DNA from: a virus
DNA length: 24,301 bases
UHGV virus genome: UHGV-1420800
Reading direction: 5' to 3' (one strand)
Shown: piece after piece, positions 20,754-24,301 of the stretch
Layout of the letters: each line of letters opens with the position of its first letter
How positions within the stretch are numbered: the first letter of the stretch is position 1
The notes under the pieces: generated by a model
The model's database searches: none
What the model saw: only the letters and a program-made list of their open reading frames with translations
What the model was told of the DNA's origin: nothing
Translations under genes and position numbers: made by a program

Positions 20754-23147
20754 ATGGCTAATTACCGTGATTTGTTAGAGCAGGCTGGCGCACGTTACGG
20801 TGTGCCAGAAGGGTTGATGACTGCACTGGGTGCCAAGGAGTCTTCTTACAACCCTGCCGCAGTAAGCTCCGCCGGGGCTGTAGGATTGACTCAGGTCATG
20901 CCTGGGACATGGCGTGATATGGGTTATACCGATGAGCAAATGCAAAACCCCGAATATCAGGCTGACGCTGGCGCGCGCTATCTGGCAAAGATGTACCAGC
21001 AGTTTGGTAACTGGCGTGACGCTCTTCAGGCTTATCACGACGGTCCCGGCAACGTTATGAAGGCAAAGCGTGGTGAATATACGCCAGGGCCTGAAGGCCG
21101 CGGTTACGTTGATGATCGCTTTGCTCAATGGGCGGGTGACCCGGTGACAGACTCAACAGTAGAACAGCGCGCCACCTCTGCAAAGGTACATCCTCAGCAA
21201 GACCCTAACAACCCGTTTGCACAACTGGAAGCACAGTCATCCGAACAAGTATCGGCATCAGGCGTGCAGTCAGACCCAAATAATCCATTTGCTCAGATTG
21301 AGCAGCAGGCAGCCAGTCAGCAGCCACCTCAACCCGTAAGTTCTGTCGCACCGAAACCTGTTCAGCAGCAAGGCGGAATAATGTCTGACCTTGGTAATGG
21401 ACTTGCTGAAACCGGGCGCGGCTTACTACAGGCAGGAATCAACGTAGCGAACATACCTGCTGAACTCACTGATGCTGTAACAAGCGCGGCGGCTTGGGCT
21501 GGCGGTAAACTCGGCATTGGCGATGGTACATATCAACCAGCACCACGAGTAACAACGCAGGGATTAGAGCAGGACTTTGGCCTTCAGCAAGGCGCGCTGA
21601 CTCCACAAACGACAGAGGGAAGGGTATTTGCTGAAGCATTGCCTTACCTCACTCCTGCTGGCGTTGAGAGAGCGGCAGCACAGGCACCAACACTTGCTGG
21701 TCGAATTGCTCAGGGGGCAACTCGCCTTCTCGCAGAAAACGCAGTTGGATCACTTGCTGCAAACAGTGCGAAAGATGATGCGGAAGCACTCGCCACCGAT
21801 TTAGGCGTTGGTGTGCTGGCTGGCGGTGCTATTAACGCTGCCGGACGTGGATTAGGTGCTGCTTATCGTGGTGTTCGTGGTTCGATAGCACCAGAAGCGC
21901 AACAGGCTATCAGATTTGCAGAACGTGAAGGAGTTCCTCTGCACACCACAGACCTGTTACAACCCATTTCCCGCGTCGGAAAAATGGCGCAGACGACAGC
22001 GGAAAATATCCCCCTGGCTGGCACAAGCGGAATGAGAGCAACGCAACAGGAAGCGAGAAGCCAGTTGGTGCAGAGATTTGCTGATAAATTCGGTGAGTAT
22101 GATCCAGCTGTTGTTATTGACAGCCTTAAAGCGAAAACATCAGGAATTCGTCGTGCTGCAGGGAACCGTCTTGAGCAGGTTCAGAATGCTATGGCGGGAA
22201 TAAACATTCAGCCTGCAAGAGCAATTCAGCAGATTGATACAGAAATATCTAACCTGCAGAAGCTTGGTAAGGTTGCTGATAACGAGACTATTTCAAAACT
22301 TCAGTCCTATCGTGATGAGCTTGTTCGCAATGCTGGTCCTGATGGTCCGGTAAATCTGGATTTGAAGCAATTAAGCGATCTGCGCAGCCAGTTCAGAATG
22401 GACGTGAAGGGGGAGCGACCAGTGTTACCAAACCGTTCCGATGCTGCCATTCAGCGCGTTTACAAGGCAATGACCGACGATATCAATGGTGCCATTGGTC
22501 AGAATCTTGGCAACGATACTCTCCGTAAATATCAGCAGGCCAATGCCGTCTACGCTGACGAAGCGGCGAAACTAAAGAATACCAGGCTGAAGAATGTTCT
22601 CATGAAAGGCGACCTGACGCCGGAAGTTGTCAACAACATGCTATTCAGCAAGAACAAATCGGAAATTAAGACGCTGTATAACTCAGTTGGTCGTGTTGGC
22701 AGGGCGCAAATGCGCAATGGCATCATTGGAAAGGCGATGGAGAAATCAGGTGGTTCCCCTGACCAGTTCCTTCGACAGCTTAACATCCTGCAAAACCAGA
22801 CTGGCATCACATTTAAAGGTCAGGAAGCCGCTTATCTGAAAGGATTGAAAAACTACCTGCAATCCACGCAGCAGGCTGCAAAAGCGGCAGTAACAACACC
22901 AACAGGGCAGCAAACCATCCCGTTCATTATCGGATATGGGACAGCAATGAACCCTGCGACAACTGGCGCAGCGGTAAGCTACGGACTTCTTACTCGCGCC
23001 TATGAGAGCGAGCCATTCAGAAATGCAATGCTCCGAATGGCAAACACCCCACGCGGATCAACAGCGTTCGAGAAAGCCATGCAGCAGGCACAAAAGGCCA
23101 TTAACGCCCTGACTCAGGGGGCTAAGTCTGATGCGCTGTCAGAATAG
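20754..23147 (+). CDS. 16: Ejection protein gp16-like with N-terminal soluble lytic transglycosylase (SLT) domain
   Basis: 797 aa. Residues about 20-100 carry the SLT signature ...AKESSYNPAAVSSAGAVGLTQVMPGTWRDMGY...YLAKMY...AYHDGPG (catalytic Glu in the ES motif). The rest is Ala/Gly/Gln-rich like E proteins. Confidence 0.8.
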   Translation: MANYRDLLEQAGARYGVPEGLMTALGAKESSYNPAAVSSAGAVGLTQVMPGTWRDMGYTDEQMQNPEYQADAGARYLAKMYQQFGNWRDALQAYHDGPGNVMKAKRGEYTPGPEGRGYVDDRFAQWAGDPVTDSTVEQRATSAKVHPQQDPNNPFAQLEAQSSEQVSASGVQSDPNNPFAQIEQQAASQQPPQPVSSVAPKPVQQQGGIMSDLGNGLAETGRGLLQAGINVANIPAELTDAVTSAAAWAGGKLGIGDGTYQPAPRVTTQGLEQDFGLQQGALTPQTTEGRVFAEALPYLTPAGVERAAAQAPTLAGRIAQGATRLLAENAVGSLAANSAKDDAEALATDLGVGVLAGGAINAAGRGLGAAYRGVRGSIAPEAQQAIRFAEREGVPLHTTDLLQPISRVGKMAQTTAENIPLAGTSGMRATQQEARSQLVQRFADKFGEYDPAVVIDSLKAKTSGIRRAAGNRLEQVQNAMAGINIQPARAIQQIDTEISNLQKLGKVADNETISKLQSYRDELVRNAGPDGPVNLDLKQLSDLRSQFRMDVKGERPVLPNRSDAAIQRVYKAMTDDINGAIGQNLGNDTLRKYQQANAVYADEAAKLKNTRLKNVLMKGDLTPEVVNNMLFSKNKSEIKTLYNSVGRVGRAQMRNGIIGKAMEKSGGSPDQFLRQLNILQNQTGITFKGQEAAYLKGLKNYLQSTQQAAKAAVTTPTGQQTIPFIIGYGTAMNPATTGAAVSYGLLTRAYESEPFRNAMLRMANTPRGSTAFEKAMQQAQKAINALTQGAKSDALSE

Positions 23148-23236: not shown

Positions 23237-23497
23237 TTATCTGCTGTCTTTTTTATATAGCTTCTTGAGCGTATCAAAGACAATTTTCTTAACCATATCA
23301 GATTGTTGTTCTGCCATACGCTCTGCATCGTCAATGTAAACTGATGCAGAGCTTTGTTTATCCAATGATTCCTCAATCGCTGCAATTATCTCTGAGTTCA
23401 GCGACCTGTTATTCATCTTCGCACGCTGCTTAATTTTCGAGTGGAGTTCATGCGGAAGTCTCAAGTGAAACTGCGCCTCGTCGTATTTGCTGTACAT
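23237..23497 (-). CDS. mnt: Mnt-like repressor (Arc/MetJ ribbon-helix-helix family)
   Basis: Reverse-strand ORF; from Met12 (RBS AAGGA upstream) 86 aa: ...QFHLRLPHELHSKIKQRAKMNNRSLNSEII...DDAERMAEQQSDMVKKIVFDTLKKLYKK, closely resembling P22 Mnt (RHH N-terminus, C-terminal tetramerisation helix). Alternative start at 23530. Confidence 0.8.
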   Translation of the reverse strand: MYSKYDEAQFHLRLPHELHSKIKQRAKMNNRSLNSEIIAAIEESLDKQSSASVYIDDAERMAEQQSDMVKKIVFDTLKKLYKKDSR

Positions 23498-23618
23498 CCT
23501 TGATGCCTCACCAGTTGGGTGGAATGGCATCGTAACCTACTGGATAAATACTCAATAGTACCATTTCGGTATGCAATCACATCATGGTTGCATCATATCA
23601 TTCGTCTGGAGCAATGAA
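23498..23618. promoter_or_regulatory. Divergent control region between mnt and tailspike, containing inverted repeats (candidate operators)
   Basis: Inverted repeat ATGCAA-N11-TTGCAT at 23571-23593 and a shorter TACT-caat-AGTA at 23549-23560; AT-rich; must carry the leftward mnt promoter and any rightward tailspike promoter. Exact promoter elements not resolved. Confidence 0.4.
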
Positions 23619-24276
23619 ATGTCAGATATCACCGCAAATGTTGTGGTAAGCATGCCTTCGCAACTCTTCACTATGGCTCGTTCTTTTAAAGCCGTAGCCA
23701 ATGGCAAAATTTATATCGGTAAAATTGACACTGACCCGGTAAACCCTGAAAACCAGATTCAGGTTTATGTGGAGAACGAAGATGGTTCTCACGTTCCTGT
23801 TTCGCAACCAATCATCATTAACGCTGCTGGATATCCGGTATATAACGGACAGATTGCCAAGTTCGTAACTGTGCAAGGCCATTCTATGGCTGTTTATGAT
23901 GCGTACGGTGTGCAGCAGTTCTATTTTCCGAATGTGCTGAAGTACGACCCTGATCAATTTCGAAGTGAGCTGTCTGAAGAAGATGGTGCAACTAAAATTG
24001 GATACTTGGCCGGTACAGTAGCGGATAGTTTGTCATATTGGGCAACGCCAGAGCAATATGGAGCAATTGGAGATGGTGTAGCTGATGATACAGTGGCGGT
24101 GACTAATGCTATTATGACTGGAAGATGCCTCATGAAGAGAGGTTCCACATATCGTATGGTGATGAATGAGGAAAATGTCATCACTCCCCCAGCTGGTGCA
24201 TATATTGATTTTAACGGTGCTAGAATAACTCATGAGAAAACTGGGTACCTTGTTTTTCTTAACAAAAACCAAGACG
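23619..24276 (+). CDS. 9: Tailspike protein, 5' part (P22 gp9-type head-binding domain followed by a beta-helix/pectate-lyase-like receptor-binding domain); 3' end cut off by contig end
   Basis: ATG 23619 (GGAG 8 nt upstream): [43 protein letters not shown]...[10 protein letters not shown] matches the conserved P22-like tailspike N-terminal domain. Then ...[24 protein letters not shown]..., a motif typical of right-handed beta-helix glycanases. Frame is open to the adapter junction. Confidence 0.9.
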
Positions 24277-24301
24277 CTGTCTCTTATACACATCTCCGAG
24301 C
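24277..24301. other. Library adapter: Nextera/Tn5 mosaic end CTGTCTCTTATACACATCT plus CCGAGC (start of read-through adapter)
   Basis: Exact match to the Nextera transposase adapter, mirror image of the sequence at 11-44. Confidence 0.9.

Follow-up and report, generated by a model that had tools for sequence, protein, structure and literature searches.

A probable mosaic tailspike gene with an uncharacterised beta-helix receptor-binding domain at the end of an Escherichia coli P22-like phage contig

We analysed the tailspike gene that lies at the right-hand end of UHGV virus genome UHGV-1420800, a stretch of 24,301 nucleotides (nt) that we call the window and in whose numbering all positions are given. 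The biological sequence extends over positions 45-24276 only, both contig ends being library artefacts. The features of the locus are listed in Table 1. The reading frame at its end very probably represents the first third of a tailspike gene, from an E. coli phage or prophage of the P22-like (Lederbergvirus) group, and the gene is a mosaic in which a beta-helix receptor-binding domain from another lineage follows the conserved head-binding domain.

Table 1. Features at the tailspike end of the window
Feature	Coordinates	Strand	Evidence
GGAG ribosome-binding site, 7 nt 5' of the start codon	23608..23611	+	read from sequence
Tailspike gene, 5' fragment: codons 1-219 of 707 and one base of codon 220	23619..24276	+	open frame from ATG to adapter; identity to 707-aa E. 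coli proteins
Head-binding domain, for docking on the tail hub: residues 1-113, up to and including the DPDQ hinge	23619..23957	+	PF09008; Sf6 and P22 structures
Receptor-binding domain: neck and N-terminal cap, residues 114-208 (cap motif at 24048-24092)	23958..24244	+	~99.7% identity to the GB089 prophage tailspike; weak profile matches
Beginning (32 nt) of the AT-rich beta-helix body; second mosaic junction	24245..24276	+	divergence from GB089; identity to L118, L119, L121 and L003
Nextera read-2 adapter CTGTCTCTTATACACATCTCCGAGC, non-biological	24277..24301	.	exact match; absent from shuffled sequence
Mnt/Arc-family repressor gene, 97 aa, divergent, directly upstream of the tailspike	23237..23530	-	PF03869 Arc, E 7.8e-15; PF11423 Repressor_Mnt, E 8.7e-15

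The locus and the head-binding domain

The reading frame opens with an ATG at 23619-23621 and contains no stop codon up to the end of the genuine sequence. It is cut at 24276 because adapter begins at the next base: the Nextera mosaic-end CTGTCTCTTATACACATCT occupies 24277-24295 and recurs, reverse-complemented, at 26-44 (0 matches in 100 shuffles). A Logan contig with the same sequence (L003, from SRR5665123) runs on as ...GACGTA where the window reads ...GACGCTGTCTC, that is, GACG and then adapter. Since L003 extends past the adapter point, the truncation of the gene is technical.

Across 84% of its length the window is 96.8% identical to the E. coli phage IME10 (Lederbergvirus), and judged by its sequence it is an E. 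coli P22-like (Lederbergvirus) genome. The gene stands at the end of the late operon, as the tailspike of a P22-like genome should, with a gp16-like gene of 797 amino acids (aa) and a Mnt-family gene directly upstream, and two syntenic loci, one on an ENA metagenome scaffold (L118) and one in an E. coli isolate (L121, GCA_958325795.1), share the order gp7, Inj_translocase, gp16, Mnt, tailspike.

Residues 1-113 match the Pfam family Head_binding (PF09008) over its entire length (E 1.5e-67; positions 1-113 of 113; 225 bits, the cutoff being 24). Among solved structures Sf6 gp14 comes closest (7sg7; residues 1-121, E 5.7e-68), and the P22 tailspike 2xc1 aligns with residues 2-119 (E 9e-51; P22 gp9 constructs overall E 1e-46 to 1e-52). 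All alignments of solved structures to the fragment end at residues 119-121, and the closest head-binding domains belong to phages of E. coli and Shigella (Sf6, IME10), not to P22. With Sf6 gp14, P22 gp9 and HK620 gp9 the spike shares the full-length PF09008 domain, the DPDQ hinge, the position after the ejection-protein genes and, to judge from full-length copies, the architecture of head-binding domain, neck, right-handed beta-helix and C-terminal domain. An earlier note on this DNA, made by a model from the letters alone, had taken the first ~115 aa for the conserved N-terminal domain of a tailspike and had placed the end of the gene at an adapter at 24277, leaving the specificity domain incomplete. 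The full-length Pfam match, the Sf6 and P22 structures, and a frame that runs open into the Nextera adapter agree with it on both points.

Two junctions in the tailspike gene

The DPDQ hinge (residues 110-113, nt 23946-23957) is the point at which every alignment to known P22-like tailspikes stops. DNA similarity to IME10, Sf101, HK620, Sf6, CUS-3, epsilon34 and ~30 further phages ends at 23950-23966, and for IME10 and Sf101 it ends at 23956, within the Q codon of the hinge; right after DPDQ the IME10 spike reads ...DPDQLEQRLSSPGG..., and the window sequence differs there. A crossover at the hinge is classical in P22-like tailspikes. No homology to the beta-helix of P22 gp9 was found beyond residue ~120, the alignments to 2xc1 and 8tvr stopping at 119 for the fragment and covering chain residues 15-117 for the family profile. 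The Pfam scan gave no PF09251-type match, and at E <= 0.001 the full-length 707-aa protein of scaffold L118 (P0007) has no Pfam match but PF09008. The divergence from the P22 endorhamnosidase that the earlier note had placed after a DPDQF linker is thus seen both in the DNA, where similarity to the relatives ends at 23956, and in the protein, where the P22 alignment ends at ~119; nor does the downstream part align to that enzyme when full-length counterparts found elsewhere are brought in through the family profile.

A second junction lies farther downstream. Over 23950-24244 the window is 98.6-99.7% identical to the complete genomes of E. coli GB089, 09-00049 and OkiPb01715 and to three IMG/VR prophage contigs, and in all of these the final 32 nt (24245-24276) are unmatched. 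Compared base by base, GB089 shows 2 mismatches in 23706-24244 (one of them within the 524 nt of 23721-24244) and then 14 in the last 32 positions; in the protein, a common HEKTG is followed in GB089 by FLVFMNRNPD, where the window differs. The same 32 nt are identical in L118, L121, L003 and an isolate contig from NCBI (L119, AARLBR010000055.1). The G+C content (GC) is 43-44% in the head-binding domain and neck and falls to 35% in the body of the window type, as against 43% in the GB089-type body and 49.6% for the window overall. Two junctions and the fall in GC make the tailspike gene a mosaic of at least three pieces. The receptor domain has therefore been swapped, as the earlier note held, but not at the single junction that it described, the second breakpoint falling at 24245, inside the receptor domain.

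The spikes of the O168:H8 Shiga toxin-producing E. coli strains GB089 and 09-00049 (WP_065275678.1, WP_065225567.1) belong to the same receptor family (710 aa versus 707) and have near-identical DNA over 23709-24244. Beyond the abrupt divergence at 24245 they are 57-70% identical to the window type in the first part of the helix and only 13-40% over residues 361-707, and they lack the downstream MBOAT module described below. The glycan specificities of the two types probably differ.

The complete gene was recovered from other loci. A protein database search with the 110-residue receptor-domain fragment gave no match; the full-length receptor domain of GB089 returned 14 relatives, and was the sole route that reached the family. 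The DNA encoding P0007, whose 90% cluster has 40 members, equals window 23745-24276 but for one base. Further 707-aa E. coli proteins (P0025, P0026, P0027, P0028 and P0030; for example WP_316416926.1 and ENW0614040.1) are identical to all 219 residues of the window fragment and differ from P0007 at 3-5 positions, P0025 alone being recorded in 188 blocks of the collection. In two E. coli isolates (L121, and L122, GCA_007049865.1) the DNA matches window 23441-24276 with one mismatch. The recovery of the full gene that the earlier note had called for is thus provided by public E. coli assemblies, in which the same gene is annotated automatically as phage tailspike protein or head-binding domain-containing protein; the L121 and L122 copies differ from the window's in lying not in a phage genome but in a degraded prophage remnant, by an integrase at the yfdC-dsdX site. 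The full product is most likely, from these sequences, a 707-residue protein that is already deposited. We infer the continuation past 24276 in this contig from such loci because the receptor-domain family is demonstrably mosaic: in the alignment, P0008 and P0007 are ~100% identical at residues 1-150 and 391-707 and 53-80% between.

The breakpoints within the receptor domain (P0007 versus P0008 and P0001) adjoin the short motifs DPDQ, PEQxGAxGDG and ITHExTG, which many spikes have in conserved form. Their position in the sequences suggests that these motifs may act as crossover points, and the gene would then illustrate how recombination reuses short conserved motifs, at the hinge, at the cap and at ITHExTG.

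An assembly chimera near an adapter-contaminated contig end might produce the appearance of a domain swap. Adapter is indeed present at both ends of the contig, and the last 32 nt are sharply unlike the nearest complete-genome relatives. Viral contigs contained no match to the last 32-45 nt by exact or degenerate pattern, metagenome contigs none by degenerate pattern, and complete E. coli genomes none by blastn. The same junction sequences are, however, found again in L003 (Logan), L118 (ENA metagenome) and L119 (NCBI isolate) and at the two chromosomal loci L121 and L122, and the identical protein recurs throughout those 188 blocks. These independent loci refute the chimera, which we regard as barely credible.

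The receptor-binding domain and its candidate glycan

The earlier note had also drawn attention to a 19-residue GDG-DDT motif (residues 147-165, nt 24057-24113) as typical of right-handed beta-helix polysaccharide depolymerases. The motif overlaps that of the N-terminal cap, PEQxGAxGDGxxDDT, and the profile matches of the cap region are all to beta-helix proteins: the Phi92 gp150 colanidase (6e0v; E 4.9e-6 for the fragment, 8e-13 for the family profile), CBA120 TSP1 and TSP3, and a fungal beta-1,3-glucanase. The motif region thus has the beta-helix homology in profile searches that the note's description implied. The match to PF12708 (Pect-lyase_RHGA_epim) is confined to residues 146-170 and lies below the gathering score (15.2 bits against a cutoff of 27), so that the domain does not belong to that family, and a match to PF12218, the endosialidase N-terminal extension, is likewise below threshold. 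What the domain has in common with pectate-lyase-like depolymerases is the fold and the cap motif, and not family membership by sequence. The match to Phi92 gp150 is limited to ~70 residues of the cap region and identity to the coliphage K5A lyase (2x3h) is 13%; a catalytic motif common to the spike and either enzyme was not established.

The body of the domain, from residue 209 on, matches nothing in Pfam, PHROG, NCBIfam or PDB sequences. The GB089 receptor domain gave no match to PDB sequences with phmmer, and the window-type body gave none with tblastn in 50,697 phage records; megablast of this body against 5,426 complete E. coli genomes matched the shared neck alone, and a search for related loci in GTDB species representatives returned only generic cap-motif matches in unrelated bacteria. 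An exhaustive HMMER scan found 14 cluster representatives of the body family among 1.84 billion. The family as we define it (P0001-P0024) is held together by homology over the whole ~500-residue body and by invariant residues; the full-length proteins P0025-P0030 fall within it, and the window holds only the first 11 residues of the family body, which match exactly. In 19 members, down to 23% identity, the polar residues D283, H305, R327, H339 (of a YGPxH motif), E355 and K397 are invariant, a set that is typical of an active site and argues for one here. Members of the family are also fused to other virion anchors (PF18668 Tail_spike_N, or the PF03906 T7 tail-fibre N-terminus together with PF18668), as is typical of horizontally exchanged spikes.

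We modelled P0007 with AlphaFold2. Residues 141-707 are all-beta, mostly with a predicted local distance difference test score (pLDDT) of 76-95 in blocks of 10 residues with a few dips to 54-69, and in the model the C-terminal part of this near-identical full-length copy is built on a right-handed parallel beta-helix, as in P22-type tailspikes. The top Foldseek matches of the model are almost all beta-helix tailspikes (probability 1.0, template modelling (TM) score 0.2-0.47). Structural neighbours, with their listed values, include the AlgE4 epimerase and the coliphage K5A lyase (30.3), the HK620 spike and CBA120 TSP2 (27.5), and the spikes of 9NA and Det7 (26.4 and 25.9), all of them 8-14% identical. 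The model and its neighbours therefore support a beta-helix depolymerase fold. It is at this level alone that the receptor domain resembles the P22 and Sf6 endorhamnosidases and the HK620 endo-N-acetylglucosaminidase, from which it differs in having no sequence similarity to them past the hinge.

The following mechanism can be proposed. The conserved head-binding domain would, by homology, dock a trimeric spike on the tail hub. Past the hinge the protein runs into the receptor-binding domain of another lineage, which in the near-identical full-length copies consists of a short neck, the cap, the right-handed parallel beta-helix and a C-terminal beta-sandwich. By analogy with characterised spikes of the same architecture, the beta-helix may bind and cleave a host surface polysaccharide and so bring the virion to the outer membrane. 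The gene most likely arose by recombination, with at least two junctions, at 23956/7 (relative to IME10, Sf6 and HK620) and at 24244/5 (relative to the O168:H8 prophage spikes).

Several points weigh against this reading. The window contains only 106 residues of the receptor domain, and what lies beyond residue 219 is taken from other loci of a mosaic family. In the searches above no characterised enzyme matched the body by sequence. The model is that of a monomer, built from a 13-sequence alignment, in which the head-binding domain is poor (pLDDT <50). Its structural neighbours interleave lyases, epimerases, hydrolases and non-enzymatic adhesins (PfbA, Vag8), with no catalytic residues assigned, and no host serotype is on record for any carrier of the exact window-type spike.

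On balance, the receptor is somewhat more likely than not to be an O-antigen. Receptor domains of the GB089 type occur in two prophages that differ in chromosomal insertion site and in neighbouring genes, one lying next to ybhB-bioA and the other next to torT, and the hosts of both are O168:H8, sequence type 718 (ST718; serotypes from PMC5009963). It is this link of the sister group to O168:H8, together with the putative acyltransferase pair in the seroconversion slot (described below), that favours the O-antigen. The earlier note's step from a different receptor to a different host range is one that we, too, would only infer. A capsule or other exopolysaccharide, such as a K antigen or colanic acid, could be the target instead, as in CUS-3, a P22-like phage with a K1 endosialidase spike. 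The head-binding domain is common to CUS-3, the best sequence relatives of the cap region are the Phi92 gp150 colanidase and, below threshold, the PF12218 endosialidase extension, and PHROG 8280, which the protein matches, carries the label 'colanic acid degradation'. That match comes from the N-terminal part, however, and since the body alone matches no PHROG we discounted it as a functional lead; the cap motif, moreover, is generic to beta-helix spikes and present in that of IME10 too, and the sister group correlates with one O serogroup (O168:H8) across two different prophages. We consider a capsular or other exopolysaccharide target unlikely. Still less probable, and in our opinion very much so, is a beta-helix that binds as an adhesin and has no depolymerase activity. 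Non-enzymatic adhesins do occur among the structural neighbours, but the invariant polar residues and YGPxH look like an active site, and nearly all characterised P22-type spikes are enzymes.

The modularity of this tailspike is textbook and leaves current understanding unchanged; what the gene presents is a new specificity, as yet uncharacterised, in a protein of a very familiar kind, and the fragment is now linked to the full sequence of that specificity. The host range of P22-like phages is determined by the receptor domains of their tailspikes, which are also in use as serotype-specific probes and depolymerases.

Downstream module, prophage remnants and neighbouring genes

Directly downstream of the full-length tailspike, outside the window, a two-gene module lies on the opposite strand (L118 12149-14630, L119 1522-4003, L121 10149-12630). 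In L118, L119, L121 and L122 one of its genes encodes an MBOAT protein (PF03062, E 9e-34; the DltB-like TIGR04091, E 6e-53, below cutoff), and the neighbouring gene encodes a 339-aa protein, without family match, that has an AGSSG motif and a membrane anchor at its N-terminus. In L119, L121 and L122 an integrase comes next after the pair; scaffold L118 stops short of this point. From their sequences the two proteins would form a putative polysaccharide O-acyltransferase pair. In P22 and Sf6 the slot between tailspike and integrase holds O-antigen conversion genes, and the module fills this seroconversion slot, in which gtrABC or an Oac of the acyltransferase-3 type is the usual cargo of P22-like phages.

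Between different phage backbones, tailspike and module together are at least 99.4% identical, or ~99.7% when the first ~125 nt of the gene are set aside. In E. coli isolates L121 and L122 an intact 707-aa tailspike, identical to the window fragment, lies within the remains of a decayed prophage, with dsdX/dsdA/emrY on one side and yfdC/mlaA on the other. The order there is truncated gp20, gp16, Mnt, tailspike, 339-aa gene, MBOAT, integrase; for L122 no ejection-protein genes were called. Because the exact protein is recorded in as many as 188 blocks, the intact spike appears to be kept in a defective element in many strains. The near-identity of the cassette across backbones and its retention in decayed remnants might hint at selection in the host, and not only in the phage. 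One might further speculate, though we hold it to be rather doubtful, that the receptor-domain body represents a new and very small family of beta-helix polysaccharide-cleaving enzymes, passed on in one cassette together with a two-component O-acyltransferase of the DltB/DltD type that acts on the same glycan.

Both contig ends, at 1-44 and 24277-24301, carry the Nextera read-2 adapter (GTCTCGTGGGCTCGGAGATGTGTATAAGAGACAG and its reverse complement). Three assemblies end or begin within 33 nt of each other (24246-24278): the window at 24276, L003 at 24278, and L119 with a start equivalent to 24246. These breaks coincide with the second mosaic junction and with the drop in GC from 43% to 35%. 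They may come from poor coverage of AT-rich DNA in Nextera libraries, or from the downstream cassette being present in the genome a second time. An invertible segment, with a crossover site like that of the Mu G segment, was rejected, there being in L118 neither an inverted copy of the 33-mer nor significant inverted repeats around the receptor domain. An alternative receptor domain on the reverse strand downstream was also rejected, the reading frames in question being those of the MBOAT operon.

Upstream, a single Mnt/Arc-family repressor gene separates gp16 from the tailspike, and the arc and ant genes that P22 has in its immI region are missing; L118, GB089 and 09-00049 each have two Arc-family genes and an antirepressor at this position. 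In the gp16-like ejection protein (20754-23147, + strand) the P22_gp16 region is preceded, at the N-terminus, by a fused SLT lytic-transglycosylase domain (PF01464, E 2.8e-25).
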